Below are positions 12,001 through 43,779 of a stretch of DNA of 64,000 nucleotides, piece after piece. Made by a program: the position numbers and the translations under genes. The notes under the pieces were generated by a model, which was given only the letters and a program-made list of their open reading frames with translations, did no database searches and had not been told where the DNA came from. The DNA is taken from the NCBI RefSeq assembly GCF_056746865.1, contig NZ_CM163382.1. One strand, written 5' to 3'. Positions within the stretch are counted from its first letter, which is position 1; every line of letters begins with the position of its first letter.

Positions 12001-15000
12001 ACTCAACGCCGCCGAACAGCAGCAGCCGTTAACCCTTAACGGCTCGACCAGCGCGGAAGTAGGGCAGACGGTAACCGTCACCTTTGGCGGCAAAACTTAT
12101 ACCGCCACGGTGGCCGCCAATGGCACCTGGGCGCTGAACGTGCCTGCGGCAGATCTGGCCGCGCTCGGGCAGGGCGCACAGACCATTACCGCCAGCGTGA
12201 ACGATCGCGCCGGTAACCCCGGTCAAACCACGCACGCCCTGACCGTCGATACCGTTGCGCCAACGGTCACCATCGCCACGGTGGCGGGTGACGATATTAT
12301 CAACAACGCCGAACAGCTCGCTGGGCAAACCATCAGCGGCACCACCACCGCTGAAGTGGGCCAGACGGTGACCGTCACCTTTAACGGTCAGAGCTGGACT
12401 GCAACGGTCGGCAGCGGCGGAAGCTGGTCGGTGTTTATTCCGGCGCAGCAGTTTGCCGGATTAAGCGACGGCAGCTACACCATTAGCGCGACGGTTAGCG
12501 ATCAGGCCGGAAACCCTGGTAGCGCCAGCCGTGGCGTGACATTGAACGGCGACGTCCCCTCCGTCACCATCAACACCTTTGCGGGCGATGATGTGGTGAA
12601 TGCGGCGGAGCACGGCTCGTCGCTGGTGATCAGCGGCACCACCACCGCCCCAGTCGGGCAGACGCTGACCCTGACCTTAAACGGCAAAACCTACACTACC
12701 ACGGTACAGACCGGCGGTAGCTGGAGCTACACCCTCGGCAGCGCCGATGTCACCGCGCTGGCGGACGGCAATGCCTACGTGATTAACGCCTCGGTGAGCA
12801 ACGCCATTGGCAACACCGGCAGCAGCAATCACACCATTACCGTCGACCTCAGCGCCCCGGCGATGGGCATTAATATCGATTCCCTGCAAGCCGACACTGG
12901 CCTTAGCTCCAGCGACTTTATCACCAGCGTCAGCCCGGTGGTGGTCAACGGCTCGCTCACCGCCGCGCTTGCCAGTAACGAGACGGCGCAAATCAGTATC
13001 GACGGCGGCGTAACCTGGACCACGCTTACCGTTACCGGCACGACCTGGCGCTATAACGACAGCCGCACGCTGACCGATGGTAACTATCTCTATCAGGTAC
13101 GGGTGATTGACGCAGCGGGCAACGTCGGTGCCACTGACAGCCAGAATGTGGTGATCGACACCATCGCGCCAGATCCAGCAGTAAAAACCATCGCCATCAG
13201 CGCGATCACCACCGATACTGGATTGATTACTAACGATTTTGTCACCAGCGACACGACGCTTGCGGTGAGCGGCACGCTGGGGGCGGCGCTTTCTGCCGGT
13301 GAGTTCGCGCAAATCAGCATTGATGGCGGCACCACCTGGCAGAATCTTTCGGTAAGCGGTTTGACCTGGACATATCTTGACGGGCGTACGCTGACTGACG
13401 GCAACTACAACTATCAGGTACGGGTGATCGACACCGCCGGAAATATCGGCGCGACTGCCAGCCAGATAGTCACCGTGGATACCACCGCGCCGCTGGCGAG
13501 CAAAACCATCGCCATTGCGGGCATTAGCGATGACACCGGGTTAAGCAGCAGCGATTTTGTTACTCGCGACACTACGCTTACTGTGCGCGGCACGCTCGGC
13601 GCGGCGCTGGCGGCAGACGAACGGGCGCAAATCAGCCTCGACGGCGGTGTCACCTGGACCACGTTAACCGTTATCGGCACCAGCTGGAGCTATGCCGATG
13701 GTCGCACACTGACCGACGGCACCTGGAACTACACGGTGCGGGTGGTGGATCTGGCGGGGAACGTTGGGCAGACCGCAACGCAAAACGTGGTGGTCGACAC
13801 CACCAGCCCGGAAGCGGCGAAAAGTATCACCATTACCGGTATCAGCGATGACACCGGAGCCAGCAGCAGCGATTTTATTACCAGCGACACCTCGCTTACC
13901 GTGCGCGGCGTATTGGGGGCGGCGCTCGGCGCTAACGAATTCGCGCAAATCAGTACCGACAACGGCGCAACCTGGGTGAACGTGACCGTCGCCGCAGACG
14001 GCCTTAACTGGAGTTACGTTGACGGACGCACGCTCACCAACGGCACCACCACCTGGCAGGTGCGGGTGGTGGATCTGGCGGGCAACGTTGGCGCAACCGG
14101 CAGCCAGTCGGCGCAGATTGACACCGTGAACCCGGCGCAGGTACTCACCATCGCCAGCATCAGCACCGACACGGGGAGTTCGGCAACTGACTTTATCACC
14201 AGCGATACCTCGCTCACGCTGACCGGTTCGCTGGGGGCGGGGCTTGCCAGCGGCGAAGTGGCGCAGATTAGCCTCGACGGCGGCGCGACCTGGATCACGC
14301 TCACCACCAACGGCACGCAGTGGACCTACACTGACAGCCGCACGCTGACCGACGGCAGCTACGTTTACCAGGTGCGGGTGCTGGATCTGGCGGGGAATAC
14401 TGGCCCGGTGGTGTCGAAAACGGTGGTGGTCGATACGATTAACCCCACCGCGACGCCGACCATTGTGTCGTACACTGATGACGTCGGGCAGCGGCAGGGG
14501 ACATTAAGCAGTTCGCAGGCCACCGACGACACTACGCCGTTGCTGAACGGCGTGCTCTCCGGCCCGCTTGCCAGCGGTGAAGTGGTTTACCTCTACCGTA
14601 ACGGCCTGCTGTTAGGCGCGGTAACGATGGTAGGCGCACTGAACTGGACCTACAGCGACAGCGGGCTGGTGAGCGGTGCCTACACCTACAGCGCGCGAGT
14701 GGTGGATCTGGCGGGGAATATCACCTCCTCCAGTGATTTTGTCCTGATGGTCGATACCTCTATTCCGACCACGCTGGCGCAAATTACCAGCCAGACCACG
14801 CGCGATACTACGCCGATTATCAGCGGGGTGATCACCGCCGCGCTTGCCAGCGGGCAGTATGTTGAAGTGGTGATCAACGGCAAAACCTACACCTCTGAAC
14901 CGGGCGGTGCGGTGGTGGTCGATCCGGCGCACAACACCTGGTATGTACAGTTGCCGGATACCGACGCGCTGGCGGCTTCTGCGACCGCCTATAACGTCAC

Positions 15001-17248
15001 CGCGCAGGTAAAAAGCTCGGCGGGCAACGGCAATAACGCCAATATTAGCAACGGCACGGTGACGGTTAACGCGGCGATTGATTACACACCGACCTGGACC
15101 ACCGCCAGCAAAACCACCGCCTGGGGGCTGACCTACGGCCTCGACACGCACGGAATGTGGACGGTGCTGGCAAACCAGCAGGTAATGCAATCGACTGACC
15201 CACTCACCTGGTCGAAGACCGCGCTGACGCTGTATCAGAGCGGCAACAACTACGCCACCAGCTCCATCGCCGATTACGACCGTAACGGCACGGGCGATCT
15301 GTTTATCACCCGTGATGACTACGGTACAGGCTATATCAACGGCTTTACCAATAACGGCGACGGCACCTTTTCCAGCGCTATTCAGGTCACCGTCGGCACC
15401 CTGACGTGGTACGGCTCGATTGTGGCATTTGATAAAGAGGGCGACGGCTATCTCGACTTCTGGATTGGCGACGCGGGCGGGCCGGACTCCAACACCTTCC
15501 TGTGGAACAACGCAGGTACGCTGGTAGGTAACTCCACTACGTCGAACAGCGGCGGTAGCGCCACGGTGGGCGGGGCGGTGACGGGGTATCTTTCGCTCAA
15601 CGAAGGTTCTGGCGTCGATCTGAACAATGACGGCAGGATCGACCTGGTTCAGCACACCTACAACCTGAACAACTATTACACGCTATCTTCGCTCATCAAC
15701 CAGGGGAATGGCACGTTTGTCTGGGGGCAGAACACCACCAATACCTTCCTGAGCGGGGCGGGTAGTGGCGCTATGAGCAGCAGCGTTTCTATGACCTGGG
15801 CCGATTTCGATGGCGACGGCGATATGGACCTCTTCCTGCCTGCCAGCCAGGGAAGAGCTAACTACGGCTCGCTGTTATTCAACACCAACGGCGTGCTGGG
15901 CAGTCCGGTGGCGGTGGGCGCAACGGCAACCACCTACGCCAGCCAGTTTAGCGTGGCGGTGGACTGGAACCACGACGGCCTGATGGATATCGCCCGTATC
16001 GCCCAGACCGGACAATCGTATCTTTACACCAACGTTGGTGGTGCCAGCAACTGGACACAATCGGCCCTCGGCGGCAGCCAGAGCGGTACCACCAGCGGCG
16101 TGGCGGCAATGGACTACGACTGGGACGGCGCGGTGGATGTACTGGTGACCAAACAGTCGGGCAGCGTGTTCCTGATCCGCAACACCAACACGGTGAGCTA
16201 CGGCACTTCGCTACACCTGCGCATCACCGATCCCAACGGCATTAACGTCTATTACGGTAATACCGTAAAACTGTATAACTCGGCGGGGGTGCTGGTCGCC
16301 ACGCAAATCATTAACCCGCAGTCGGGGATGGGGGTTAACGACACCTCGGCGCTGGTCAACTTCTACGGGCTGAATGCCGGAGAAACCTACAACGCGGTGC
16401 TGATCAAATCCACTGGCACCACCGCCAGCAATATCGACCAGACGGTCAACACCAGCTGGGGCGGCTTACAGGCCACCGATGCCACTCACGCTTACGACCT
16501 CAGCGCCGAAGCAGGCACCGCGAGCAACAATGGCAAGTTCGTCGGCACGGGCTATAACGACACCTTCTTTGCCACCGCAGGTACTGACACTTACGACGGC
16601 TCCGGCGGCTGGGTGTACAGCTCCGGCACCGGAACGTGGCTGGCAAACGGCGGCATGGACGTGGTTGATTTCCGCCTCTCGACGGTGGGCGTGACCGCGA
16701 ACTTAAGCAGCACCGCCGCACAGGCCACCGGCTTTAACACCTCGACATTTACCAATATCGAAGGCATTTCCGGCTCGAATTTTAACGACACTCTGACCGG
16801 CAGCAGCGGCGATAACCAACTGGAAGGGCGCGGCGGCAACGACACCCTTAACATCGGAAACGGCGGTCACGATACCTTGCTCTATAAATTGCTCAACGCC
16901 AGTGACGCTACCGGCGGCAACGGCTCAGACGTGGTGAATGGCTTTACGGTAGGGACATGGGAAGGCACCGCCGACACCGATCGCATTGATATCCGCGAGT
17001 TGTTACAGGGCAGCGGCTACACCGGCAACGGCAAAGCCAGCTACGTCAACGGCGTGGCAACGCTGGATGCGCAGGCTGGAAACATCGGTGATTTTGTCAA
17101 AGTCACCCAGAGCGGCAGCGACACCATCGTGCAGATCGACCGCGACGGCACGGGCGGCACTTTTGCGGCAACTAACGTGGTCACGCTGACGGGCGTGCAT
17201 ACCGACCTCGCCACTTTGCTGGCGAATCATCAGTTGATGGTGGTGTAG
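1..17248 (+). CDS. Giant T1SS-secreted repeat adhesin (SiiE/LapA/Bap-like), 5' partial; 5743 codons in window
   Basis: Reading frame is open from window start (frame 2) to the stop at 17248. About 12.8 kb of ~100-aa Ig-like repeats, then a second repeat class, FG-GAP/VCBS-like motifs, RTX-like Gly/Asp-rich repeats and an acidic C-terminus, with a T1SS ABC transporter gene 4 bp downstream. Confidence 0.9.
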   Translation, partial: IATDDVINAAEKGADLTLSGTTTNVEPGQTVTVTFGGKNYTASVASDGSWTATVPAADLASLPEGSASAQASVSNINGNSASAVHNYSIDSSAPTIIINTVASDNIVNASEADAGVTVSGSTTAEAGQIVTVTLNSPTVQTYQATVQADGSWSINIPAADLEALTDGSHTLTATVNDKAGNPASTTHNLAVDLTVPVLTINTIAGDDIINAAEHGQALVISGSSTGGEAGDVVTVTLNSKTYTTTLDASGNWSVGVPAADVTALGSGPQTVTATVTDAAGNSDNETHTVTVNLAAPTIGINTIATDDVINATEKGADLQISGTSNQPAGTTITLTLNGQNYTATTDAAGNWSTTVPASAVGALGEASYTVTANVTDSAGNSNSASHNVQVNTALPGVTLNPVASDDIINAAESGVAQTISGQVTGAAAGDTVTVTLGGKTYTATVQGNLSWSVDVPAADIQAIGNGDLTVNASVTNGVGNTGSGSRDITIDANLPGLRVDTVAGDDVVNSIEHSQALVITGSSSGLAAGAALTVVINTVTYAATVLADGTWSLGVPAADVGNWPAGTVNITVSGATSAGNPVTITHPVTVDLAAVAISINTVSGDDVINAAEKGADLTLSGSTSGVELGQTVTVTFGGKTYTATVAGDGSWTTSVPAADLAALRDGDATVQASVSNINGNTASATHAYSVDATAPTFAINTIATDDILNAAEAGNPLTISGSSTAEAGQTVTVTLNGVTYTGTVQADGSWSVSVPTADLSNLTASQYTVSASVSDKAGNPATATHGLAVDLTVPVLTINTVSGDDIINAAEHGQALVISGSSTGGEAGDVITVTLNSKTYTTTLDASGNWSVGVPLSDVTALGSGPQTITATITDAAGNSDDASRTVTVNLTAPTIGINTIADDDVINATEKGADLQITGTSNQPAGTTITVTLNGQNYTAITDASGNWSATVPASAVSALGEANYTVTANVTDSAGNSNSASHNVLVNSALPAVTINAVAADDIINAAEAGNAQTISGQVTGAAAGDTVTVTLGGNTYTATVQANLSWSVSVPAADIQAIGNGNLTVNASVTNGVGNTGSGSRDITIDANLPGLRVDTVAGDDVINSIEHNQALVITGSSTGLTAGTALTVEINNVTYGATVLADGTWSLGIPAADVSNWPAGTVDITVSGTNSAGTTSTITHPVTVDLAAVAITINTLSGDDVINAVEKGETLVVSGSTSGVEAGQTVTVTFGGKNYTTTVEANGSWTVNVPPADLAALPDGAGNVQASVSNINGNSAQADRAYSVDATAPLITINTIASDDTLNVSEAGAGITISGTTTAQAGQTLTVTLNNNTYQTTILADGTWSVNVPATDLSGLTASSYTVTATVSDKASNPASADHALAVDVTAPDLTINTVAGDDIINAIEHGQALVVSGTSTGAAAGDVVTVSLNGKNYTTTLDASGNWSVGIPAADVTALATGSQTITASLSDRAGNSDSATHNVTVDLSGPTLTISTVSGDDIINNAEKTQDLTISGGSSGLATGTTVTVMLNGLAYSATTDSSGNWSVTVPASAVGALGEAVYSISASATDSAGNSGSTTHTVNVESLLPGVIINTVAGDDIINAAEIVVAQTISGQVTGTAVAGNTVIVTIGGNQYNATVQSDLSWSVSVPANVLQALGNGELTISASVTNSANNTSTATHDIVIDANLPGLRVDTVAGDDVINSIEHTQALVITGSSSGLAAGAALTVVINSVTYGATVLADGSWSVGVPAADVTNWPAGTVNIAVSGTNTAGTTTSISHPVTVDLAAVAITINTLSTDDVINAAEKGSDLQLSGTTSDVEAGQTITVIFGGKSYTTTVAAGGTWGLTIPAADLATLPDGAANVQASVSNVAGNSAQATHAYSVDATAPSVTINTIATDDILNADEAGSALTISGTSTAEAGQTVTVTLNGVNYSGNVQADGSWSVSVPTGDLANLTASPYTVSAAVSDKAGNPASATHNLTVDLVAPVVTINTVAGDDIINATEHGQAQIISGSATGATTGNTVSVTIGTTTYTTVLDANGNWSIGVPASVISALAQGNVTITATVTDSAGNSGTASHTVSVALGAPILSINTIAVDDIINATEKGADLAISGSSNQPAGTQITVTLNGQNYTTTADASGNWSVTVPASRVSTLGEATYTVTAAATDADGNSGSASHNVQVNTALPGVTINVVASDDIINAAEAGAGQSISGQVTGAAAGDTVTVTLGEATYTATVQANLSWSVDVPASALQALGNGELTISASVTNSVGNTGNGTREITIDANLPGLRIDTVAGDDVVNIIEHGQALVITGSSSDLAAGSNVTLTINGQTYVAAVLADGSWSVGVPAVDVSAWPAGTVTITASGNTTAGNPVSVTHPVTVDLTAVAVSINAITADDVINAAEKGAALTLSGSTSGVEAGQTVTVTFGGKTYTASVAANGSWSTTVPATDMAALRDGDASAQANVSNVNGNSATTTHAYSVDATAPTVTINTIAGDDILNAAEAGAALTITGSSTAEAGQTVTVTLNGANYTGTVQTDGSWSISVPPADLSALTASNYTVSAAVSDKVGNPASVNHNLTVDTSVPVVTINTVAGDDVINATEHAQAQIISGSATGAATGSAVTVTIGTNTFTTVLDASGNWSVGVPASVVSALANGTVTINASVTDAAGNSGSATHLVTVNTGLPSITFNAISGDNVLNADEKGQPLTISGSSTGLATGAQVTVTLNGHNYSATTDAAGNWTLTVPVSDLAALGQANYIVSASATSAAGNIASSQANLLVDSGLPGVTINTVAGDDIINAAEAGADQTISGVVTRAAAGDTVTVTLGGNTYTTTVQGNLSWSISVPAADLQALGNGDLTINASVTNANGNTGSGTRDITIDANLPGLRVDTVAGDDIVNSIEHGQALVITGGSSGLNAGVPLTITINGTAYSATVQADGSWSVGIPATNVSAWPAGALTVDVAGQSSAGNPVSVSHPFTVDLTAVAISINTVASDDVINAAEKGTDLTLSGSTSGIESGQTVTVTFGGKTYTASVAANGSWSVNVPAADLATLPDGAANVQASVSSASGNSASATHAYSVDASAPTLTINTIASDDILNATEAGSPLTISGTSTAETGQTVTVTLNGATYSGNVQADGSWSVSVPPSALGALTASNYTVSATVNDKAGNPGSTSHNLAVDTTAPVLTINTVAGDDIINDAEHAQALVISGTSSGGEAGDVVSVVLNGKTYTSTLDASGNWSVGVPAADVTALGSGAQTITASVSDRAGNSDDASRTVTVSLSAPVISINTIAGDDVINATEKGSDLTLSGTSDQPAGTAITVTLNGQNYSATTDASGNWSVTVPASAVSALGEATYSVTASVTNAQGNSSTASHNVQVNTALPGVTINPVATDDIINAAEAGSAQTISGQVTGAAAGSTVTVELGGKTYTATVQADLSWSVSVPAADWQALGNGELTVNASVTNAVGNTGSGTRDITIDASLPGLRVDTVAGDDVVNIIEHSQAQVITGSSSGFAVGTALNVVINNQTYAATVLANGSWSVGVPATDVSNWPAGTLNITVSGANSAGTQTSITHPLTVDLTTVAVSINSITSDDVINAAEKGAALTLSGSTSGVEAGQTVTITFGGKTYTTTVAANGSWSTTVPAADMAALRDGDASAQVRVTNVNGNSATATHEYSVDSAAPTVTINTIASDNIINASEAAAGVTVSGTSTAQTGQTLTVTLNGTNYQTTVQADGSWSLTLPASDLTALANNGYTLTATVSDLAGNPGSASKGVTVDTTAPVISFNTVAGDDVINRVEHTQAQIISGTATGAVAGDRLVVTIAGQQYVTSTDASGNWSVGVPASVISGLADGTVTISATITDSAGNSSTQTHNVQVNTAAVSLSVSTISGDNIINAAEAGSALTLSGTGTNFAAGTVVTVLLNGKGYSATIQNNGSWSVNVPAADVAALADGTSYTVSASAQDSAGNSATASRSVAVDLTAPVISINTVSTDDRLNAAEQQQPLTLNGSTSAEVGQTVTVTFGGKTYTATVAANGTWALNVPAADLAALGQGAQTITASVNDRAGNPGQTTHALTVDTVAPTVTIATVAGDDIINNAEQLAGQTISGTTTAEVGQTVTVTFNGQSWTATVGSGGSWSVFIPAQQFAGLSDGSYTISATVSDQAGNPGSASRGVTLNGDVPSVTINTFAGDDVVNAAEHGSSLVISGTTTAPVGQTLTLTLNGKTYTTTVQTGGSWSYTLGSADVTALADGNAYVINASVSNAIGNTGSSNHTITVDLSAPAMGINIDSLQADTGLSSSDFITSVSPVVVNGSLTAALASNETAQISIDGGVTWTTLTVTGTTWRYNDSRTLTDGNYLYQVRVIDAAGNVGATDSQNVVIDTIAPDPAVKTIAISAITTDTGLITNDFVTSDTTLAVSGTLGAALSAGEFAQISIDGGTTWQNLSVSGLTWTYLDGRTLTDGNYNYQVRVIDTAGNIGATASQIVTVDTTAPLASKTIAIAGISDDTGLSSSDFVTRDTTLTVRGTLGAALAADERAQISLDGGVTWTTLTVIGTSWSYADGRTLTDGTWNYTVRVVDLAGNVGQTATQNVVVDTTSPEAAKSITITGISDDTGASSSDFITSDTSLTVRGVLGAALGANEFAQISTDNGATWVNVTVAADGLNWSYVDGRTLTNGTTTWQVRVVDLAGNVGATGSQSAQIDTVNPAQVLTIASISTDTGSSATDFITSDTSLTLTGSLGAGLASGEVAQISLDGGATWITLTTNGTQWTYTDSRTLTDGSYVYQVRVLDLAGNTGPVVSKTVVVDTINPTATPTIVSYTDDVGQRQGTLSSSQATDDTTPLLNGVLSGPLASGEVVYLYRNGLLLGAVTMVGALNWTYSDSGLVSGAYTYSARVVDLAGNITSSSDFVLMVDTSIPTTLAQITSQTTRDTTPIISGVITAALASGQYVEVVINGKTYTSEPGGAVVVDPAHNTWYVQLPDTDALAASATAYNVTAQVKSSAGNGNNANISNGTVTVNAAIDYTPTWTTASKTTAWGLTYGLDTHGMWTVLANQQVMQSTDPLTWSKTALTLYQSGNNYATSSIADYDRNGTGDLFITRDDYGTGYINGFTNNGDGTFSSAIQVTVGTLTWYGSIVAFDKEGDGYLDFWIGDAGGPDSNTFLWNNAGTLVGNSTTSNSGGSATVGGAVTGYLSLNEGSGVDLNNDGRIDLVQHTYNLNNYYTLSSLINQGNGTFVWGQNTTNTFLSGAGSGAMSSSVSMTWADFDGDGDMDLFLPASQGRANYGSLLFNTNGVLGSPVAVGATATTYASQFSVAVDWNHDGLMDIARIAQTGQSYLYTNVGGASNWTQSALGGSQSGTTSGVAAMDYDWDGAVDVLVTKQSGSVFLIRNTNTVSYGTSLHLRITDPNGINVYYGNTVKLYNSAGVLVATQIINPQSGMGVNDTSALVNFYGLNAGETYNAVLIKSTGTTASNIDQTVNTSWGGLQATDATHAYDLSAEAGTASNNGKFVGTGYNDTFFATAGTDTYDGSGGWVYSSGTGTWLANGGMDVVDFRLSTVGVTANLSSTAAQATGFNTSTFTNIEGISGSNFNDTLTGSSGDNQLEGRGGNDTLNIGNGGHDTLLYKLLNASDATGGNGSDVVNGFTVGTWEGTADTDRIDIRELLQGSGYTGNGKASYVNGVATLDAQAGNIGDFVKVTQSGSDTIVQIDRDGTGGTFAATNVVTLTGVHTDLATLLANHQLMVV
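2..12850 (+). repeat. Tandem array of ~300-bp (~100-aa) Ig-like domain repeats organised as a ~1.8-kb higher-order unit of six domain subtypes, at least 7 copies
   Basis: Recurring motifs (INAAEKGADLTLSG, TVTFGGKTYTA, INAAEHGQALVISG, INATEKGADLQISG, AQTISGQVTGAAAGDTVTVTLGG, VNSIEHSQALVITG) return in the same order. Antisense artefact ORFs recur at 1621, 3415, 5215, 7009, 8806 and 10600, giving a period of about 1797 bp. Confidence 0.85.
12851..14450 (+). repeat. Second class of ~105-aa repeats in the adhesin (about six copies)
   Basis: Repeated pattern DTGLSSSDFITSDTSLTVRGTLGAALAA.E.AQIS.DGG.TW..LTV.G..W.Y.DGRTLTDG.Y.YQVRV.D.AGN; two more degenerate copies follow to about 15050. Confidence 0.6.
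15270..16150 (+). repeat. FG-GAP/VCBS-like calcium-binding repeats (probable beta-propeller) in the adhesin
   Basis: Spaced Dx[DN]xDGxxD motifs: DYDRNGTGDLF, FDKEGDGYLDF, DLNNDGRIDLV, DFDGDGDMDLF, DWNHDGLMDIA, DYDWDGAVDVLV. Confidence 0.55.
16540..16890 (+). repeat. RTX-like glycine/aspartate-rich nonapeptide repeats preceding the C-terminal secretion signal
   Basis: GTGYNDTFFATAGTDTYDGSGG and GSNFNDTLTGSSGDNQLEGRGGNDTLNIGNGGHDTLLY resemble GGxGxDxUx repeats; the protein ends ...TLLANHQLMVV. Confidence 0.6.
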
Positions 17249-17251
17249 AGA

Positions 17252-19414
17252 ATGAAAAAAAATGCCCAGTCCGTGGAAGCCTGGCTGGAGGCGATGATCG
17301 CCGTGGCGCGTTATTACCGCCTTGATTTTTCTCAGGAGAATGTGCGCGCGACCGTCAACTGGGAGCGCGACAGTAAGCGGGAGGAGTTACTCACCGACAT
17401 GGCGCGGCAGTTGGGGATGGGGCTTCGGCTGGTGGAGTTCTCCACCGACTCGCTCAACCCGTGGCGGCTGCCGTTGATCGCCGTTTTTGATAATCAACAA
17501 ATTGGCGTGATCACCCGCCGTGACAATCACGACAATATCAGCATTCAGTTTAGCGGTGACGAAGGGCTGGAAACTACGCTTAACGTCGCGGATGTTGAGG
17601 ATAAAATCGTTGAACTGGCGCTACTGCGCCCGCTCAGCGCCATCCCTGACGCGCGGGTAGATGACTATATTCGCCCGTATCAGGCGAACTGGTTCTGGAG
17701 CCTTTCGCTAAAAGACTGGCGGCGCTACGGCGATATTATGCTGGCCTCGCTGGTGGCGAACGTGCTGGCGCTGGCGGCGATGATTTTCTCGATGCAGGTT
17801 TACGACCGGGTGGTTCCGGCGCAATCGTACCCGACGCTATGGGTGCTGTTCGCCGGGGTGATGATGGCGATCCTGTTTGAGTTCTGTATGCGCATGGTGC
17901 GCACACATCTTTCGGATGTGATCGGCAAGCGGGCGGATCTGCGCATTTCGGATCGCGTTTTTGGTCACGCATTACGGCTGAAAAATAACGTGCGATCGAA
18001 ATCCACCGGATCGTTTATCTCGCAGATCCGCGAGCTGGAATCGGTGCGGGAGCTGATTACTTCCACCACCATCGGCGCGGTGGCGGATCTGCCGTTCTTC
18101 CTGCTGTTTGTCTTTATTTTATGGATGATCGGCGGCTGGCTGGTGCTGGTGGTTTTGCTGGCGCTGCCGTTATTGGTGATCCCCGGCCTGCTGGTGCAAC
18201 GCCCGCTGGCGCGGCTGGCGAACGAAGGGATGCGCGAGTCGGCGGTGCGTAACGCTACGCTGGTGGAAGCCGTGCAGTCGATTGAAGATATTAAGCTGCT
18301 GCGCGCCGAACAGCGTTTTCAGAATCAGTGGAACCACACCAACGACGTGGCCTCGTCCATCAGCATGAAGCAACGTTTTCTCACCGGGCTACTGCTCACC
18401 TGGACCCAGGAAGTGCAGTCCATCGTTTACGTCGTGGTGCTGTTGGTGGGCTGCTTTATGGTAATGAACGGTGACATGACCACCGGCGCGCTGGTCGGGA
18501 CGACGATCCTGGCTTCGCGCACCATCGCGCCGCTGTCGCAGATATCCGGCGTGCTCTCGCGCTGGCAGCAGGCGAAAGTGGCGCGCAACGGACTTGATGA
18601 ACTGATGAAGCGCCCGGTGGATCAGCCGGAACACGGCAAACTGGTGCATAAAGCGGTGCTACACGGCAATTATCAGTTCAGCAACGCTATCTTTTATTAC
18701 GATGAAGAAGAGAAAATTGCCGATGTGGCGATTGGCAAACTCAACATTCAGGCCGGAGAGAAAATCGCCATTCTTGGGCGCAACGGCGCGGGTAAATCAA
18801 CGCTACTGCAAATGCTCGCCGGAATGCGTATCGCCCAGCAGGGGCAGGTGCTGCTGGATAACATCAGCATCGGTCAGCTTGATCCGGCGGATCTGCGCCG
18901 CGACATGGGGCTGCTGAGCCAGACCGGGAGACTCTTTTTCGGTTCGCTGCGGGAAAACCTGACGATGGGGATGCCGGAAGCCAGCGATGAAGATATCGAA
19001 CGCGCGTTAACCCTCAGCGGGGCGCTGCCGTTTGTGCAGAAGCAGAAAAACGGCCTCAACTACATGATTCAGGAAGGGGGATTTGGCCTCTCTGGTGGTC
19101 AGCGGCAAACGCTGCTGCTGGCGCGGCTGCTCATCTCTCAACCCAATATCGTGCTGCTCGATGAACCCAGCGCCTCGCTGGACGAAATGGCGGAAGCGCA
19201 TTTAATCGAACAACTGAAACAGTGGATTGGCCATCGCACGCTGATTATCGCCACTCACCGCACGGCGATGCTGCAACTGGTGGACCGCATTATCGTGATG
19301 GATCAGGGGCGGATTGTGATGGATGGCGCGAAAGAGGCCATTTTGCGTGAACAGAGCGAACCCACGGCGCGACGGGTGGTGTTGCAGGAGAAGAATAAGG
19401 GGTCTGCCGCATGA
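17252..19414 (+). CDS. T1SS ABC transporter (ATPase/permease, HlyB/LapB-like) with N-terminal C39-like domain
   Basis: 720 aa. Walker A GRNGAGKST, ABC signature LSGGQRQ, Walker B IVLLDEP and H-loop ATHR are present, with hydrophobic segments in the middle. Starts 4 bp after the adhesin stop and overlaps the next gene by 4 bp. Confidence 0.9.
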   Translation: MKKNAQSVEAWLEAMIAVARYYRLDFSQENVRATVNWERDSKREELLTDMARQLGMGLRLVEFSTDSLNPWRLPLIAVFDNQQIGVITRRDNHDNISIQFSGDEGLETTLNVADVEDKIVELALLRPLSAIPDARVDDYIRPYQANWFWSLSLKDWRRYGDIMLASLVANVLALAAMIFSMQVYDRVVPAQSYPTLWVLFAGVMMAILFEFCMRMVRTHLSDVIGKRADLRISDRVFGHALRLKNNVRSKSTGSFISQIRELESVRELITSTTIGAVADLPFFLLFVFILWMIGGWLVLVVLLALPLLVIPGLLVQRPLARLANEGMRESAVRNATLVEAVQSIEDIKLLRAEQRFQNQWNHTNDVASSISMKQRFLTGLLLTWTQEVQSIVYVVVLLVGCFMVMNGDMTTGALVGTTILASRTIAPLSQISGVLSRWQQAKVARNGLDELMKRPVDQPEHGKLVHKAVLHGNYQFSNAIFYYDEEEKIADVAIGKLNIQAGEKIAILGRNGAGKSTLLQMLAGMRIAQQGQVLLDNISIGQLDPADLRRDMGLLSQTGRLFFGSLRENLTMGMPEASDEDIERALTLSGALPFVQKQKNGLNYMIQEGGFGLSGGQRQTLLLARLLISQPNIVLLDEPSASLDEMAEAHLIEQLKQWIGHRTLIIATHRTAMLQLVDRIIVMDQGRIVMDGAKEAILREQSEPTARRVVLQEKNKGSAA

Positions 19415-20586
19415 ACGGACAACTGCAATACAACCGTGGCCTGACTGAACCCCGCTTGCCGCGTTCGGCGCTGGCGGTACGCGTTACCGCTGTGATGCTG
19501 CTCTGTTTTCTCGGCTGGGCGTGGTACTTCCAGCTTGATGAAGTCACCACCGGCAGCGGCACGGTAGAACCCTCCGGGCGCGAACAGGTGGTGCAGTCGC
19601 TGGAAGGCGGAATTCTGTATCATCTCGACGTCAAGGTTGGCGATATTGTTGAACAGGGCCAGCCACTGGCGCAGCTTAACCGCACCAAAACGGAATCCGA
19701 CGTCCAGGAAGCAATGTCGCGGCTGTACGCGGCGCTGGCAACCTCGGCGCGGCTGCGGGCGGAAGTGAGTAATAAACCGCTGGTCTTCCCTGACGAACTG
19801 AATAAATTCCCCGAACTTATCGAGTCGGAAACGGCGTTGTACAACACTCGCCGCGATGGGCTGAACAAAGCCACCACCGGGCTGACGCAGGGGATTAGCC
19901 TGGTCAACCGCGAACTGGCGATGACCCAGCCGCTGGTAAAACAGGGGGCGGCGAGCAGCGTTGAAGTGCTGCGCCTGCAACGCCAGGCCAATGAACTGGA
20001 AAACAAACTCAGCGACGTGCGCACGCAATACTACGTTCAGGCGCGCGAAGAGTTAGCAAAAGCCAATGCGGAAGTGGAAACCCAGCGTTCGGTGATCCGT
20101 GGACGGGAAGACTCCCTCACCCGGCTCAACTTTACCGCGCCGGTACGTGGCATTGTTCAGGACATTGACGTCACCACGGTTGGCGGCGTTATTGCCCCCG
20201 GTGGTAAACTGATGACCATCGTGCCGCTGGATGAGCAACTGCTGATCGAGGCAAAAATCTCCCCGCGCGATGTGGCGTTTATCCATCCGGGGCAAAAATC
20301 GCTGGTGAAAATAACCGCCTACGATTACTCCATCTACGGCGGCCTGCCGGGAGAAGTGGCGGTGATATCACCAGACACCGTGCAGGATGAAGTACGGCGC
20401 GATGTTTATTACTATCGGGTGTACATTCGCACTTTCAGCAACCATCTGGAAAATAAAAGCAAACAGCAGTTTCCGATATTCCCCGGTATGGTGGCGACGG
20501 TCGATATCCGCACCGGCAAAAAAAGCGTGCTGGATTATCTGTTGAAACCCTTTAACAAAGCACAGGAGGCGTTGCGCGAACGATGA
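19411..20586 (+). CDS. T1SS periplasmic adaptor (HlyD-family membrane fusion protein)
   Basis: 391 aa. N-terminal transmembrane helix ([20 protein letters not shown]), long coiled-coil-prone central region, C-terminal beta domain; start overlaps the ABC transporter stop. Confidence 0.85.
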
Positions 20587-20990
20587 ACATTAGCGATGTA
20601 GCAAAAATTACCGGCCTGACCAGCAAAGCCATTCGCTTCTATGAAGAGAAGGGGCTGGTGACGCCGCCGATGCGCAGCGAAAATGGTTATCGAACCTACA
20701 CGCAGCAGCATCTCAACGAACTGACCTTACTGCGCCAGGCGCGCCAGGTGGGCTTTAACCTGGAAGAGAGCGGCGAACTGGTGAATCTGTTTAACGATCC
20801 GCAGCGTCACAGTGCCGACGTCAAACGTCGCACCCTGGAGAAAGTGGCGGAGATCGAGCGACATATCGAAGAACTGCAATCCATGCGCAACCAGCTGTTG
20901 GCGCTGGCGAATGCCTGCCCTGGCGATGACAGCGCCGACTGCCCGATTATCGAAAATCTCTCCGGCTGCTGTCATCATCGGGCGGGGTGA
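20583..20990 (+). CDS. cueR: Copper-responsive MerR-family regulator CueR
   Basis: 135 aa, [25 protein letters not shown]...[24 protein letters not shown], recognised as E. coli CueR with its C-terminal Cys metal-binding motif. Confidence 0.95.
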
Positions 20991-20993
20991 AAA

Positions 20994-21197
20994 TCAGTTA
21001 ATCCCCGTTTGCACCGAAAGAATATGCTGCAAACTTTCTACCATAATGCGCCCCGACTGAAATAAGCCTTCCTGGATTTCGTTGTTAACATTCACAGCGT
21101 GAACCAGGGAGGCTAATAACACCACTTGCAAGAAGGCAAAAATAAACGCACCGATAATCATAATATGCGTCAGGGGGATTTTCCTTTGCTCTTTCAT
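20994..21197 (-). CDS. Small single-pass membrane protein (67 aa), last gene of the autotransporter operon
   Basis: Hydrophobic helix IMIIGAFIFAFLQVVLLASLV. Its ATG overlaps the stop of the upstream lipoprotein gene (ATGA), suggesting translational coupling. Confidence 0.45.
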   Translation of the reverse strand: MKEQRKIPLTHIMIIGAFIFAFLQVVLLASLVHAVNVNNEIQEGLFQSGRIMVESLQHILSVQTGIN

Positions 21198-21616
21198 TTT
21201 AAATAACCCACAAACTGACCTTCCTTCATTAAGGCGACTTTTCCCGTGTGGTGATAAACAATGACGTTATAAAGACCTGACTGATAAACAGTGGCATCTT
21301 TATTGTCTTCATCAATTGCACATAATGAATCATTGAGATAAGCAAAGTTCTTACTGCTCATTCTAAAGGTCATGCCAAATCCTTTATAAATAGATTTTTT
21401 AGCGGCCTGGGCATGTTGTGCGGCTTCTGCATTTTTAAATGCCTGCGCTTCTGATGCACTTAAAATAGCCGCCTGACGCTGTTGTTCTGCGAGATAACAG
21501 GTGTCATGGCTGACGCCCTGCGCCTGGCAATCTGCGATGCGGGAAGTGGGTGAACTACAGCCAGCCAGTAATATAACCGCCAGCAGGGAAAACGATTTAA
21601 TGGAGCTATTCATCAT
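21194..21616 (-). CDS. Lipoprotein (140 aa) encoded immediately downstream of the trimeric autotransporter
   Basis: Signal peptide with lipobox LLAGC|SS; same strand as and 53 bp downstream of the autotransporter gene. Confidence 0.7.
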   Translation of the reverse strand: MMNSSIKSFSLLAVILLAGCSSPTSRIADCQAQGVSHDTCYLAEQQRQAAILSASEAQAFKNAEAAQHAQAAKKSIYKGFGMTFRMSSKNFAYLNDSLCAIDEDNKDATVYQSGLYNVIVYHHTGKVALMKEGQFVGYLK

Positions 21617-21669
21617 TGTTAACCTTAAATAATGTACGGAAAATTGCGAATAAGAAATTGCTGTTAAAA

Positions 21670-23454
21670 TTAGAACGAATATCCCACGCCGACACCCGCA
21701 CCGAAATCAGATTGTGTATCCGCAGAAATACCTGCTTTAAGTACCGTATGCGTTCCGGCATTAAAAGATGTTCCTACAGACACCGCAGATTCACCGTTGT
21801 ACGTTCCCGCTCCCGCTGACACCATCATCAAGTCACCGGTTTTCACCTGTGGTTGTGAGGCGATAGCGATGGCAGATGCAGTTCCCGCATTGGCTTCTTT
21901 ACGATTGTCCTCAACTTCGTTTTTCAGAGAATCGAAATGGTTATTGAGCGTAGTAATCTGCTGGCTATTATCCGCTACTCGTTTTTGCGTGTTGCTTAAC
22001 TGCTGATGCGTTTGGGTTACGTCTTGTGTCAGGCTGTCAATTTGTTCATGCGTTTGTGTTGAGTCTTGCGCCAGACGCTGAATTTGTTCCCCGTACTGCA
22101 CACTATCGATATGCTGTTGCGTTGCCTGGTTAGTCGCCAGAGTATCTATTTTTTGTTTTTGTTCTGCTGCAGTACGCGCATTCGCATCATTTTGTGCTCT
22201 CAGTCCGGCGTTAACCATCTCTTGATAATGTGCGTTGGTCTGGGCATCGCCAAGTGCGGAAACCGTTTTTTGCGTCGCGTCGATTTGTTTCTGCTGATCG
22301 TCCATTTGTTGCTGCTGGGTGTCAGCTTGTGCCTGTTGCGCATTGGCAGCGGCTGTCTGTCTGGCGTCAATCATGCTCTGATATCGGGCGGCAGTCTGCA
22401 CATCCCCGGTGGCGGCAACGGTTTTCCGGGTTTCGTCGAGTTGTTGCTGCTGGTCAGCAATATCGCTGCGGTTCTGTTCGATATTATTTTTGTTTTCTGT
22501 CACAGCACCGGAAAGTTTGACGCCGTTCATCAGAGCGGTGTTGGCGTTAGCGTTGGCATGGTCAGCCGTTGACTGGGCATGTGCGACATCGCCTTTTATG
22601 TTGGTGACGTCTGACTGCACTGCGGAGACATCATTACGGGTGTCGGCGATGGCGGCTTTATTGGCATCAATATCCGTCTGCGCCACCATAATGGCGTGCT
22701 GCGCGTCATCAGCTTTCATTGAAGCCCAGTTGGCGACATGTTGTGCGTCCTGAATGGCGGTATCCTGCCCGTTGTCGCGGACGATCTGTTTTTGCTCGTT
22801 TGATGCCAACAGTTTCTGCTGGTCGGCAATATCGCTGCGGTTCTGTTCGATGTTGTTTTTGTTTTCTGTCACAGCACCGGAAAGTTTGACGCCGTTCATC
22901 AGAGCGGTGTTGGCGTTAGCGTTGGCATGGTCAGCCGTTGACTGGGCATGTGCGACATCGCCTTTTATGTTGGTGACGTCTGACTGCACTGCGGAGACAT
23001 CATTACGGGTGTCGGTGATGGCGGCTTTGTTGGCATCAATATCCGTCTGCGCCACCGTGATGGCGTGCTGCGCGTCATCAGCTTTCAGTGAAGCCCAGTT
23101 GGCGGCATGTTGTGCGTCCTGAATGGCGGTATCCTGCCCGTTGTCGCGGTCGGTCTGCGCTTGATTGGTTATCGGGTTCAGCGTATTGGCGGGCTGTACG
23201 GGAGAGGCAGCTGTATTTTCCTGAGGTGTCGTTGTCCGGTAATCATGCGCAATCAGATAATTTTGTGCGGCTGCACTATTCCCTGTCCTTTCTAAAAATC
23301 GACCAATTTTCTGATCAATTTCCGATTGCGACATTCCTGGCTGGATTGCCGTTAATTCTGTCGTTGCCGCCTCAACAGTATCACCCGCAAACGCAGATGG
23401 ACTTACCGCGGTAGCAACAACGACAGCCAGTAAAGACAGCTTTACAGTTTTCAT
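21670..23454 (-). CDS. Trimeric autotransporter adhesin-like protein with YadA-like C-terminal anchor (~594 aa)
   Basis: Sec signal MKTVKLSLLAVVVATAVSPSAFA; long Q/A/D-rich coiled-coil-like stalk with internal repeats; C-terminus GTASAIAIASQPQ...GAGVGVGYSF matches the YadA-type anchor pattern. ATG chosen at 23454; the ORF track extends to a TTG at 23472. Confidence 0.8.
   Translation of the reverse strand: MKTVKLSLLAVVVATAVSPSAFAGDTVEAATTELTAIQPGMSQSEIDQKIGRFLERTGNSAAAQNYLIAHDYRTTTPQENTAASPVQPANTLNPITNQAQTDRDNGQDTAIQDAQHAANWASLKADDAQHAITVAQTDIDANKAAITDTRNDVSAVQSDVTNIKGDVAHAQSTADHANANANTALMNGVKLSGAVTENKNNIEQNRSDIADQQKLLASNEQKQIVRDNGQDTAIQDAQHVANWASMKADDAQHAIMVAQTDIDANKAAIADTRNDVSAVQSDVTNIKGDVAHAQSTADHANANANTALMNGVKLSGAVTENKNNIEQNRSDIADQQQQLDETRKTVAATGDVQTAARYQSMIDARQTAAANAQQAQADTQQQQMDDQQKQIDATQKTVSALGDAQTNAHYQEMVNAGLRAQNDANARTAAEQKQKIDTLATNQATQQHIDSVQYGEQIQRLAQDSTQTHEQIDSLTQDVTQTHQQLSNTQKRVADNSQQITTLNNHFDSLKNEVEDNRKEANAGTASAIAIASQPQVKTGDLMMVSAGAGTYNGESAVSVGTSFNAGTHTVLKAGISADTQSDFGAGVGVGYSF
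22440..23160. repeat. Near-identical ~369-bp tandem duplication (two copies) inside the autotransporter stalk
   Basis: Sequence from ctgctggtcagcaatatcgctgcggttctgttcg at 22447 recurs at 22816 with few mismatches; encodes the duplicated ~123-aa block DNGQDTAIQDAQH...NIEQNRSDIADQQ. Confidence 0.85.
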
Positions 23455-23472
23455 GCATTTTTTCTCTTTCAA

Positions 23473-23820
23473 AGTAAGTCACATATTTGTTTCTATAAGC
23501 AACGTAAAACGTTGTTATAAGAATTAATCTGCGTTGCAATTTGATCGAAATCTACGCCGCCATTTGTGTGATGTAAAGCGCATTTTTGTCTGGTGTAAGC
23601 GTAAACATCACCAATAAGAAACAAAAAATGTTTCTTATATAAATAAAATCGAAAATCATTTTGTGCTCTTTCAATGTAAAAAAGAGTAAAGACTTGTTTT
23701 GATAAGCGAAATAAATTCTGTTTCTGGACTAAACGTGAAGCGGTTCCTGATGTGTGCTAAAATGCGTTTCTTTGATAAATCTCAATTTTTAAGAGGTTTA
23801 CGCCAGGCAGGAAAATTTAA
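23473..23820. promoter_or_regulatory. AT-rich divergent control region between the autotransporter operon and a small ORF
   Basis: About 350 bp of markedly AT-rich non-coding DNA; perfect palindrome aagaaaca-aaaaa-tgtttctt at 23616-23636. Confidence 0.4.
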
Positions 23821-24183
23821 ATGAATGAATTTGAGAAGATTTTTAATGAAATGAATCTGGACCGGGCATTGCTACCGATCCTTTTTCGTTCGAACCGGTC
23901 AACAGTGTGGAAATATTTAAGTGGCGATAGTACGGCTCCTGCCTCAGCTATGTCACTGATTATGCTGTTGCAGTTAATCCAGAAACGAAACCCCGATCTG
24001 TTAGCCGAATGGTTAACGCTTTCTGATTTCACCATTCCGCCAGAAGTTTACCTGGACCAGCCTGATTACTGGAAAGGGTGGGTGTATACGCAACACAAGG
24101 TCAATAAAAACGTCCTGGAATATCTAAAAAAACATTATCCGGATGAAGACCAAAAAAACATGAATAAAGGTAGTGACGAGTAA
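23821..24183 (+). CDS. Hypothetical small protein (120 aa), possible helix-turn-helix regulator
   Basis: AT-rich ORF divergent from the autotransporter; segment SNRSTVWKYLSGDSTAPASAMSLIMLL loosely resembles an XRE-type HTH. No confident family assignment. Confidence 0.4.
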   Translation: MNEFEKIFNEMNLDRALLPILFRSNRSTVWKYLSGDSTAPASAMSLIMLLQLIQKRNPDLLAEWLTLSDFTIPPEVYLDQPDYWKGWVYTQHKVNKNVLEYLKKHYPDEDQKNMNKGSDE

Positions 24184-24194
24184 TTTGCCAATGC

Positions 24195-24365
<171 letters not shown>

Positions 24366-24367
24366 CA

Positions 24368-42358: not shown

Positions 42359-42417
42359 TTAATCCCGATATTGAACATTGAGTTAAAAACCAATCTGTAT
42401 TTTACAAGGAGTTTGTT

Positions 42418-43779
42418 ATGTCTTTTGATTTAATCATTAAAAACGGCACCGTTATTTTAGAAAACGAAGCTCGCGTTGTAGATATCGCCGTTAAAGGCGG
42501 AAAAATTGCTGCTATCGGTCAGGATCTGGGCGATGCAAAAGAAGTTATGGATGCGTCTGGTCTGGTGGTTTCGCCAGGCATGGTTGATGCGCACACCCAT
42601 ATTTCTGAACCGGGTCGTAGCCACTGGGAAGGTTATGAAACTGGTACTCGCGCAGCGGCAAAAGGTGGTATCACCACCATGATCGAAATGCCGCTCAACC
42701 AGCTGCCTGCAACGGTTGACCGCGCTTCAATTGAACTGAAGTTCGATGCCGCTAAAGGCAAGCTGACTATCGATGCGGCACAACTCGGTGGCCTGGTGTC
42801 TTACAACATCGACCGTCTGCATGAGCTGGATGAAGTGGGCGTTGTCGGCTTCAAATGCTTCGTTGCGACCTGTGGCGATCGCGGTATCGACAACGACTTC
42901 CGTGACGTCAATGACTGGCAGTTCTTCAAAGGTGCGCAGAAGCTGGGCGAACTGGGGCAGCCGGTGCTGGTGCACTGCGAAAACGCACTGATCTGTGATG
43001 CACTGGGCGAAGAAGCGAAAAGTGAAGGTCGCGTAACTGCCCATGACTATGTGGCTTCGCGTCCGGTATTTACCGAAGTGGAAGCGATTCGCCGCGTACT
43101 GTACCTGGCGAAAGTTGCCGGTTGCCGTCTGCACATTTGCCATATCAGCAGCCCGGAAGGCGTTGAGGAAGTGACTCGTGCACGTCAGGAAGGTCAGGAT
43201 GTTACCTGTGAATCCTGCCCGCATTACTTTGTACTGGATACCGAACAGTTCGAAGAAATCGGTACTCTGGCGAAGTGTTCACCGCCGATCCGCGATCTGG
43301 AAAACCAGAAAGGCATGTGGGAAAAACTATTTAACGGTGAAATCGACTGCCTGGTTTCCGACCACTCACCATGCCCTCCGGAAATGAAAGCCGGCAACAT
43401 CATGGAAGCATGGGGCGGTATTGCCGGTCTGCAAAACTGTATGGACGTGATGTTCGATGAAGCGGTACAGAAACGCGGAATGTCTCTGCCAATGTTCGGC
43501 AAATTAATGGCGACTAACGCAGCAGATATTTTCGGTCTGCAGCAAAAAGGCCGTATCGCCCCAGGAAAAGATGCCGACTTCGTCTTCATTCAGCCGAATA
43601 GCAGCTATGTTCTTACCAATGACGATCTGGAATATCGCCACAAAGTCAGCCCGTATGTTGGCCGTACCATTGGCGCGCGTATCACGAAAACCATCTTACG
43701 TGGTGATGTGATTTACGACATTGAACAGGGCTTCCCTGTTGCGCCGAAAGGTCAATTTATCCTTAAACATCAGCAGTAA
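42418..43779 (+). CDS. allB: Allantoinase
   Basis: 453 aa; amidohydrolase metal-binding motif DAHTH. Confidence 0.9.

Follow-up and report, generated by a model that had tools for sequence, protein, structure and literature searches.

The best-described counterpart of the locus presented here is O-island 28 of EHEC O157:H7, which comprises tolC28-rtxA28-rtxB28-hlyB28-hlyD28 (Gut Microbes 2025, PMC12758282). Each of these genes (tolC28, rtxA28, rtxB28, hlyB28, and hlyD28) is required for adherence and colonization, and RstA binds 5′ of tolC28 (PMC12758282); regulation by RstA/Ca2+ has been reported for O157. That study treats adherence, with no discussion of retention, LapG, or the final location of SiiEA. 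Substrates of the Lap type are recognized by a size of >1000 aa, C-terminal RTX repeats, and an N-terminal [T/A/P]AA[G/V] motif (10.1101/198937). In the PA1874-1877 system of Pseudomonas aeruginosa, a retention module anchors the adhesin without LapG-dependent release, and the LapG site is degenerate (10.1101/198937). The locus of Salmonella BapA harbors an adjoining TolC-like gene, an ABC exporter, and an adaptor (PMC12153261).

In the window, i.e. the whole stretch of 64,000 nucleotides under analysis, an adhesin gene, an ABC transporter gene, an adaptor gene, and cueR follow one another (Table 1). This order had been proposed for positions 17252-20990 from the sequence alone and is confirmed by open reading frames (ORFs) and family models. 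Positions 1-23000 show 1 mismatch in 23 kb to Escherichia coli strain 118UI (locus L001, 20001-43000; 22,999/23,000, 99.996%), for which RefSeq annotates the gene order ybaT, TolC family outer-membrane protein, siiEA, type I secretion system (T1SS) permease/ATPase, HlyD adaptor, and cueR. The island is flanked by ybaT and cueR, with junctions aligned with K-12, and the 118UI annotation places a total of four genes between them: an outer-membrane factor (OMF), siiEA, the ABC exporter, and the adaptor (MFP). The locus is thus O-island 28, the type I secretion/adhesin island of E. coli, in complete form, and the apparent gap in its gene set is a cutting artefact, as the window edge cuts the island. 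It is the same system as O-island 28 of O157:H7, sharing the ybaT-cueR site and the gene order, with a DNA identity of 95.7% over ABC-adaptor-cueR and 97.8% over the OMF gene and the adhesin start. The two differ in the adhesin, which is split in O157 (z0609 + z0615) and an intact 6,925-codon ORF here; for O157 strain PA20, RefSeq annotates an adhesin pseudogene with an internal stop. Because of this split or pseudogene state, findings made in O157 may apply only in part to the intact gene. Both the identity of the locus and its channel gene have been described before, and the locus carries little weight as a discovery, since RefSeq already annotates the island and a 2025 study characterized its whole T1SS in O157:H7, channel gene included.

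Table 1. Genes of the island and its right border within the window.
Feature	Position	Strand	Basis
siiEA, C-terminal 5,748 codons	1..17248	+	window vs. 118UI match and RefSeq annotation
T1SS ABC permease/ATPase, LssB/LapB subfamily (hlyB28), 720 aa	17252..19414	+	TIGR03375, Pfam
HlyD-family periplasmic adaptor (hlyD28), 391 aa	19411..20586	+	TIGR01843
CueR, 135 aa; core gene, right island border	20583..20990	+	NF007590

Directly 5′ of siiEA, 3.6-5.0 kb beyond the left end of the window as judged from 118UI, lies a gene for a TolC-family T1SS outer-membrane protein (TIGR01844, 416 bits vs. a cut-off of 225; Pfam OEP match, 1e-47). It opens the operon, is named tolC28 in O-island 28, and provides the island with a dedicated TolC-like channel, the LapE-type feature of the Lap system. 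Lying beyond the left edge, it was invisible to a reader of the window alone. The original prediction stated that neither an OMF nor a LapG/LapD-type release system is encoded downstream of the T1SS genes. Within the window this is borne out: tblastn over the 64 kb with the TolC-family protein of the island yielded only a 20-residue chance match (E=3), and two LapG proteins and the periplasmic domains of two LapDs, used as tblastn queries, yielded none at E<=1. For the locus as a whole, the OMF part of the statement fails because the OMF gene is situated just outside the left edge; an OMF gene immediately upstream of the adhesin had been named as counter-evidence, and a TIGR01844 gene indeed adjoins siiEA. 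Of the two options offered, recruitment of the chromosomal TolC is contradicted, and a location of the missing components 5′ of the adhesin gene, outside the window, holds for the OMF and not for lapG/lapD. When a gene seems to be missing at a window edge, the flanking DNA should be checked first; here it was found within 5 kb.

Of 5,426 complete E. coli genomes, 958 have the adhesin, 959 have the ABC exporter together with the adaptor, and 958 have the OMF gene joined to the adhesin start, so that the OMF is present in all island-bearing complete genomes (958/958). About 18% of E. coli keep the island, always in one copy and always on the chromosome. The full T1SS stretch is found in 959 genomes vs. 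5,424/5,426 for cueR, whose product matches NF007590 with 308 bits (cut-off 244). At the right border, the stop codon of the adaptor gene overlaps the start of cueR (ATGA). Matches of island-less genomes begin at window position 20487, and the last ~96 bp of the adaptor gene are kept in island-less E. coli as the region 5′ of cueR, as seen in the K-12 alignment. A promoter/terminator scan of 16900-21300 revealed nothing above chance between the adaptor gene and cueR.

The full-length siiEA of 118UI is a single intact ORF of 6,925 aa (RefSeq, L001 16471-37248) that starts 3,530 bp 5′ of window position 1. NCBI names the product ‘BapA-related adhesin SiiEA’, and residues 1-230, encoded outside the window in 118UI, match the SiiEA-specific model NF047714 adhesin_SiiEA (512 bits vs. 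a cut-off of 425). The part encoded in the window consists of Ig-like repeats, an FG-GAP/VCBS-like region, an RTX repeat, and a C-terminal T1SS signal, with Pfam matches to Big_13, FG-GAP_3, and HemolysinCabind (PF00353, 24.3 bits vs. a cut-off of 23) and a match of the secretion signal to TIGR03661 T1SS_VCA0849 (34.9 bits vs. 17.6). The size and C-terminal features of a Lap-type substrate are present (>1000 aa, C-terminal RTX repeats, and T1SS signal). Only 3 bp separate the end of the adhesin ORF (17248) from the ABC gene. The exporter contains ABC_membrane and ABC_tran domains and scores 837 bits against the LssB-type model TIGR03375 (cut-off 693); its 389 bits against the HlyB-type model TIGR01846 remain below the cut-off of 725. 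The adaptor matches TIGR01843 with 328 bits (cut-off 209).

The N-terminus of SiiEA, which would tether the adhesin, lies outside the window. PF22783 BapA_N spans residues 5-132, and in the AlphaFold model residues 1-120 show a block-mean pLDDT >90, except for 83 at 91-100, and a predicted helix spans 118-128. The succession of a BapA_N domain and a hydrophobic Gly/Ala-rich stretch is conserved in 141 representative homologues from an exhaustive HMMER search, used instead of a word-indexed search with the SiiEA N-terminus that returned E. coli and Shigella fragments only. The BapA-prefix domain, the LssB/LapB-type exporter, and the dedicated channel are features of retained adhesins, and SiiEA is most likely a surface protein held by its own channel and not subject to release under LapG/LapD control. 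N-terminal tethering and the absence of regulated proteolytic release are the two elements that we infer here. The choice between an adhesin regulated like LapA and one simply secreted like an RTX protein, as the original prediction had put it, appears too simple: features of the retention type are present, the LapG/LapD switch is missing, and a third state is likeliest.

It is unlikely that SiiEA instead leaves the cell by one-step release, as RTX toxins do, to act as a soluble or loosely associated factor with an N-terminal domain that plays no part in anchoring. Salmonella BapA is described as secreted and loosely cell-associated, and structure searches with the model of the SiiEA N-terminus gave no match to a solved retention module; a PDB sequence search with the same region gave chance matches only. 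Nevertheless, the N-terminal domain is conserved, confidently folded, and non-repetitive, and it opens the large adhesins of the family. Furthermore, the combination of an LssB/LapB-type exporter and a dedicated channel has been reported for retained adhesins (10.1101/198937), and cell adherence, which needs the adhesin and its T1SS, is hard to square with a fully released protein.

SiiEA carries TAAG at residues 97-100, the position equivalent to that in LapA, in three E. coli alleles; it is a canonical LapG-type motif and thus a putative site at which some protease might cut. SiiEA might be seen as an ‘orphan’ LapA-type adhesin that has a canonical TAAG, a retention-type N-terminus, and a LapB-type exporter in a species without LapG/LapD and is either permanently tethered or freed by an undescribed protease or signal, with cueR in addition being coupled to the RstA/Ca2+-controlled operon. 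As the start of cueR lies inside the adaptor stop, expression of the copper regulator could indeed be linked in this way to that of the adhesin. Taken as a whole, this reading is as doubtful as one-step release. Less probable still is that SiiEA is retained and then cut by a non-LapG protease in the exposed 95-104 loop or in the Gly-rich linker. TAAG sits in the loop predicted with least confidence within the folded domain (block 91-100, mean pLDDT 83) and is unchanged in the three E. coli alleles. Such conservation says little, being expected at the 93.5-100% DNA identity that these alleles show from the OMF gene to the start of the adhesin. Against such a cut, the island encodes no candidate protease, and the nearest homologues outside E. 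coli have lost TAAG: the closest ones (53-62% identity) show AAVG, EASG, DASG, or EVAG at the aligned position, and TAAG recurs in one distant representative only.

The genes for LapG and LapD might be encoded elsewhere in the chromosome, in which case SiiEA would be truly LapA-like, c-di-GMP-gated, and cut at TAAG (97-100). In some species, as in Legionella, lapGD is unlinked to the adhesin gene. SiiEA moreover combines all three published substrate features (10.1101/198937). However, this explanation is highly improbable in view of the searches. The genome search suggested along with the original prediction was performed by tblastn (E<=10) with chimeric queries that carry a SiiEA anchor, which forces E. 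coli chromosomes into a listing of matches that, for LapG alone, shows the ten commonest genera. With two seeds each for LapG and LapD, only the anchor matched, at one place per record, in two complete island-bearing E. coli chromosomes from a plasmid collection, one of which has an ABC gene identical to that of the window. The same queries recovered LapG/LapD in Aeromonas, Halomonas, Pseudoalteromonas, Marinomonas, and Arcobacter as positive controls (32-46% mean identity over the joined pieces). Among the 22 records matched by the LapD periplasmic domain (tblastn, E<=1), none was from Escherichia, with LapD of P. aeruginosa and Arcobacter found at 29% and 24% identity, respectively. Vibrio lapGD DNA had no match in 5,426 E. 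coli genomes by blastn in distant mode. The loss of TAAG from the closest homologues also argues against a LapG cut. LapG and LapD are therefore genuinely absent from the island and from the two island-bearing chromosomes examined.

The neighborhoods of related transporters were covered as well. Tblastn detected no LapG or LapD in 86 fetched loci except for two control loci, and the LapG active-site pattern C[ED]D[YFIW], checked afterwards on two true LapGs, does not occur in the ORFs up to 10 kb on either side of 80 related transporters. Among annotated plasmid-borne relatives, those in Pantoea and Ponticoccus and a lapEBC locus in Ralstonia are without lapGD. A Vibrio replicon harbors a true lapG-lapD pair next to a LapB-like gene, and a P. 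aeruginosa record has annotated lapG/lapD. The candidates for LapG/LapD near the 80 loci of other species, selected by motif, ORF clustering, and Pfam analysis of size-matched pairs, all proved unrelated (DUF2238, autotransporter, aminotransferase, LysE, GSP synthase, FtsY, and two-component regulators).

The E. coli hemolysin and colicin V exporters use an unlinked tolC, and the 64-kb window is devoid of an OMF gene. It is nonetheless just as improbable that the system has no private OMF and relies on the housekeeping TolC, in the manner of HlyBD with hemolysin, since a TolC-family T1SS gene opens the island in every island-bearing genome, deletion of tolC28 in O157 lowers adherence and complementation restores it (PMC12758282), and the exporter differs from that of a classical RTX-toxin T1SS (HlyBD plus unlinked TolC), scoring under the HlyB-type and over the LssB-type cut-off, with the OMF gene in the operon.

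With good confidence, the best explanation is an intact four-gene island (OMF-siiEA-ABC-adaptor) whose adhesin is tethered in its own channel without release by LapG/LapD. According to this model, the ABC exporter and the adaptor would recognize the C-terminal VCA0849-type signal, and the adhesin would be threaded C-terminus first through the dedicated TolC-like channel, export presumably being driven by the Ca2+-dependent folding that its Ig-like and RTX parts undergo once they are outside. The BapA-prefix domain (residues 1-~125), followed by the hydrophobic Gly/Ala-rich stretch, is supposed to fold on the periplasmic side. This N-terminal domain would stall the last export step and thereby leave the adhesin anchored in its own channel. 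As E. coli with the island has neither the LapG protease nor the c-di-GMP receptor LapD, surface display would not be under the control of LapG/LapD proteolysis, and regulation may be mainly transcriptional, as the RstA/Ca2+ control reported for O157 suggests.

Like Salmonella SPI-4 (siiABCDEF), the source of the ‘Sii’ name, the island has a giant adhesin of Ig repeats and an OMF, adaptor, and ABC exporter dedicated to its export. It differs from the SiiE system in having four genes, no SiiA/SiiB proton-channel accessory proteins (MotAB-like), and an adhesin N-terminus of the BapA-prefix type. That N-terminus (PF22783/NF033677) and the Ig-like repeats are shared with BapA-BapBCD of Salmonella enterica, which occupies another locus and has another repeat content; BapA is likened to SiiEA by domain models and description. 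The Lap system of Pseudomonas fluorescens (LapA, LapEBC, LapG, and LapD) likewise centers on a giant adhesin of Ig repeats that carries an RTX/T1SS signal at its C-terminus; its N-terminal domain is free of repeats and precedes a Gly-rich stretch, and TAAG lies close to residue 100. An LssB/LapB-type exporter and a dedicated TolC-like channel are shared as well. In contrast to the Lap system, the SiiEA island and the island-bearing chromosomes are devoid of LapG and LapD, and TAAG is not conserved among SiiEA homologues. SiiEA appears to unite every substrate- and exporter-side feature of the LapA class with the lack of the LapG/LapD switch, in an adhesin needed for early gut colonization. P. 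aeruginosa encodes LapG and LapD with a degenerate site in its adhesin, whereas E. coli has a canonical-looking site in SiiEA and no protease. With PA1874 set beside SiiEA by description, PA1874-1877 represents a reported precedent for the behavior proposed here for SiiEA.

The window is part of an E. coli chromosome and begins within siiEA, the giant adhesin gene of an island between ybaT and cueR that also encodes an ABC exporter and an HlyD-family adaptor. The adhesin ORF ends at 17248, leaving a gap of 3 bp to the ABC gene, whose product stays below the cut-off of the HlyB-type model TIGR01846 (389 bits, cut-off 725). Local tblastn across the 64 kb detected neither a TolC-family gene nor LapG (a periplasmic protease) nor the periplasmic domain of LapD (a c-di-GMP receptor), which bears out the original prediction that no outer-membrane factor (OMF), LapG or LapD is encoded there.

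Features of the window around cueR, with profile scores and cut-offs
Feature	Position	Strand	Family assignment
T1SS permease/ATPase, 720 aa	17252-19414	+	TIGR03375 (LssB-type NCBIfam), 837 bits, cut-off 693
HlyD-family adaptor, 391 aa	19411-20586	+	TIGR01843, 328 bits, cut-off 209
CueR	20583-20990	+	NF007590, 308 bits, cut-off 244
67-aa ORF in cueR-ybbJ insert	20994-21197	-	
140-aa lipoprotein-like ORF	21194-21616	-	no family
600-aa trimeric autotransporter, internal duplication of roughly 125 aa	21670-23472	-	YadA anchor
120-aa ORF	23821-24183	+	no family

The channel gene is located just beyond the left edge. The initial 3 kb of the window have matches in 958 of the 5,426 complete E. coli genomes, which carry this gene under the name 'siiEA: BapA-related adhesin SiiEA', and strain 118UI shows a single mismatch to positions 1-23000. 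Its annotation places, in this order, ybaT, a 1,356-bp gene for a TolC-family outer-membrane protein, siiEA with 20,778 bp (6,925 codons), the genes for the T1SS permease/ATPase and the HlyD adaptor, and cueR. According to this annotation, siiEA starts 3,530 bp left of window position 1 and the channel gene lies 3.6-5.0 kb left of it. The encoded protein belongs to the type I secretion TolC family (TIGR01844, 416 bits, cut-off 225) and also matches Pfam OEP. The OMF is a constant companion of the island, since DNA running from the ybaT end via the OMF gene up to where the adhesin begins occurs in 958 genomes and the part with the ABC and adaptor genes in 959, both in one copy per chromosome. 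Its absence from the window is a product of where the window was cut. The original interpretation was half right: an OMF upstream of the adhesin was found, adjoining siiEA in 118UI, which at the same time refutes a lack of this component at the locus, while the upstream position also considered for LapG and LapD did not hold.

EHEC O157:H7 carries this locus as O-island 28, an already known system comprising tolC28 (z0608), rtxA28 (z0609), rtxB28 (z0615), hlyB28 (z0634), and hlyD28 (z0635) (PMC12758282, 2025). All five genes are individually required for adherence to epithelial cells and for colonisation of mice; RstA binding was located upstream of tolC28, and expression increases with Ca2+ (PMC12758282). 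Export via the housekeeping TolC is contradicted by this linked tolC28, shown by others to be required in O157. The island was reported to be absent from ExPEC and EAEC (PMC12758282); however, matching islands are present in the urine isolate 118UI, the NMEC strain CE10, and UMN026 (ECUMN_0527).

About 4,465 of 5,424 complete E. coli genomes are island-less. These strains carry an adaptor-gene relic upstream of cueR, since in K-12 the 124 bp separating ybaT from cueR (L087, the K-12 locus, 3870-3993) consist of ~28 bp following ybaT and ~96 bp of the HlyD-adaptor 3' end, with a single 1-bp deletion in an A-run (window equivalent 20487-20586). This suggests that the island once resided at this site and was later deleted. 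Because the cueR ATG overlaps the stop codon of the adaptor gene in island strains, read-through or translational coupling between both genes is possible there. A second strain-variable insert occupies 20991-24367 between cueR and ybbJ, which abut in K-12; GC content is 0.48-0.49 over 20001-24000 vs. about 0.60 in the T1SS island. The sole difference from 118UI in 23 kb, position 22736, lies inside the YadA-like gene, for which the RefSeq annotation of 118UI (locus 41670-42719) is shorter than the ORF of the window. Degraded islands were observed in Escherichia whittamii, where ybaT and the ABC gene are at most 10 kb apart, the adhesin ORF has only ~2,077 aa and the expected OMF site holds small fragments, and in E. 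coli SCPM-O-B-8794, which retains only ABC-gene fragments and the adaptor gene.

The search for LapG and LapD covered 80 loci of other species with relatives of the ABC exporter (most 50-99% identity, up to 10 kb on each side). The LapG active-site pattern, later confirmed on two true LapGs (GDCEDF and ADCEDY), occurred in none of the 80, and none of their size-matched ORF pairs was LapG/LapD according to Pfam. Two of four seeds came from a Vibrio replicon on which the genes of a PF06035 protein and of a PF16448+GGDEF+EAL protein adjoin that of a LapB-like exporter, the other two from P. aeruginosa, in a record annotating lapG and lapD; in tblastn against the window and 86 collected loci, the four matched the two source loci only. 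A genome-wide protein-level test used two complete island-bearing E. coli chromosomes of 4.9 Mb each, mislabelled as plasmids in PLSDB, NZ_CP141089.1 and NZ_CP134663.1 (ABC genes 100% and 99.2% identical to that of the window). The LapD periplasmic domain matched 22 records (E<=1), none of them from Escherichia, with a sensitivity that recovered LapD of P. aeruginosa at 29% and of Arcobacter at 24% identity. A chimeric query (E<=10) that linked the two LapGs and the two LapD periplasmic domains to the SiiEA N-terminus as anchor found one place per E. coli chromosome, namely the SiiEA anchor, and recovered LapG/LapD of many other genera. Vibrio lapGD DNA had no match in the 5,426 E. coli genomes by blastn in distant mode, a weak test. 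We conclude that island-bearing E. coli lack a LapG/LapD-type module; an unlinked LapG/LapD is contradicted by these genome-wide searches, which at the protein level covered the two chromosomes.

PLSDB also files one Aeromonas caviae chromosome, two Acinetobacter baumannii chromosomes, and several Vibrio second chromosomes as plasmids, a trap for plasmid statistics. On a Ralstonia solanacearum megaplasmid (L084, a comparison locus, 3986-23335), a BapA-prefix adhesin accompanies annotated lapE-lapB-lapC, and neither lapG nor lapD occurs up to 20 kb away; outside E. coli, LapB-type systems may commonly lack a neighbouring Lap switch. In Enterobacter, Lelliottia and allies, related islands harbor two additional genes immediately downstream of the adaptor gene (L011, one such locus, 13359-16188). 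The first, a ~294-aa ORF of no family and varying strand (minus in L011), occurs in about 28 loci; the second, in 18 Enterobacter/Lelliottia-type loci including L011, encodes a ~485-aa EAL-domain protein (PF00563) with an N-terminal part that by eye resembles a LuxR-type helix-turn-helix. It is possibly a c-di-GMP link of these islands that is missing from the E. coli island.

Judged from sequence and structural model, several features of SiiEA would be those of a retained adhesin. Its first 132 residues match a BapA prefix-like domain (PF22783/NF033677). An AlphaFold model built on 29 homologues predicts eleven strands plus a helix (118-128) with a disordered segment behind it, and has 10-residue block means of pLDDT >90 over residues 1-120 except for 83 at 91-100. 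An exhaustive HMMER search yielded 141 representative homologues, most at the N-terminus of large proteins; conserved in their alignment are the beta-rich domain, a hydrophobic Gly/Ala-rich stretch (SiiEA residues 131-152, FPWGWLAGAAVGGGALGALLASGG), and a poly-Gly/acidic tail, a layout resembling the retention module and poly-glycine of LapA (10.1101/198937). The C-terminus contains a VCA0849-type T1SS target domain, an RTX repeat, and an FG-GAP region. TAAG at residues 97-100 fits the published LapG motif [T/A/P]AA[G/V], located at 107-110 in LapA (10.1101/198937), and is unchanged in three E. coli alleles. It is probably non-functional and is taken as incidental or vestigial, since the nearest non-E. 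coli homologues (53-62% identity) show AAVG, EASG, DASG, and EVAG, with TAAG at the aligned position in one distant representative only, and since chance occurrence amounts to a few percent per Ala-rich 80-residue stretch (a rough hand estimate).

Beyond the gene content, families, OMF linkage and LapG/LapD absence demonstrated above, we infer that SiiEA is tethered and lacks regulated release. In the most likely mechanism, a dedicated three-part T1SS, TolC28-ABC-adaptor, would export it C-terminus first, the BapA-prefix N-terminal domain would hold it in its own channel, and display would be set by transcription instead of LapG/LapD proteolysis. Cleavage by a protease unrelated to LapG is conceivable. 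A simple one-step release, although possible, agrees poorly with the conservation of the N-terminal domain, an exporter of the LssB type, and the adherence phenotype. Of some value is the question of how an E. coli adhesin that has LapA-class features would be both retained and released without a Lap switch. The O157 study makes no mention of LapG and does not address retention; there, the adhesin gene is broken up into two ORFs, treated as two RTX proteins (PMC12758282), whereas the window strain has one intact ORF. In O157:H7 PA20 (L088, 2396-3005), it is a RefSeq pseudogene with an internal stop. A reported precedent for anchoring of SiiEA without LapG-dependent release is PA1874 of P. aeruginosa, in which a retention module anchors the adhesin in this manner (10.1101/198937).
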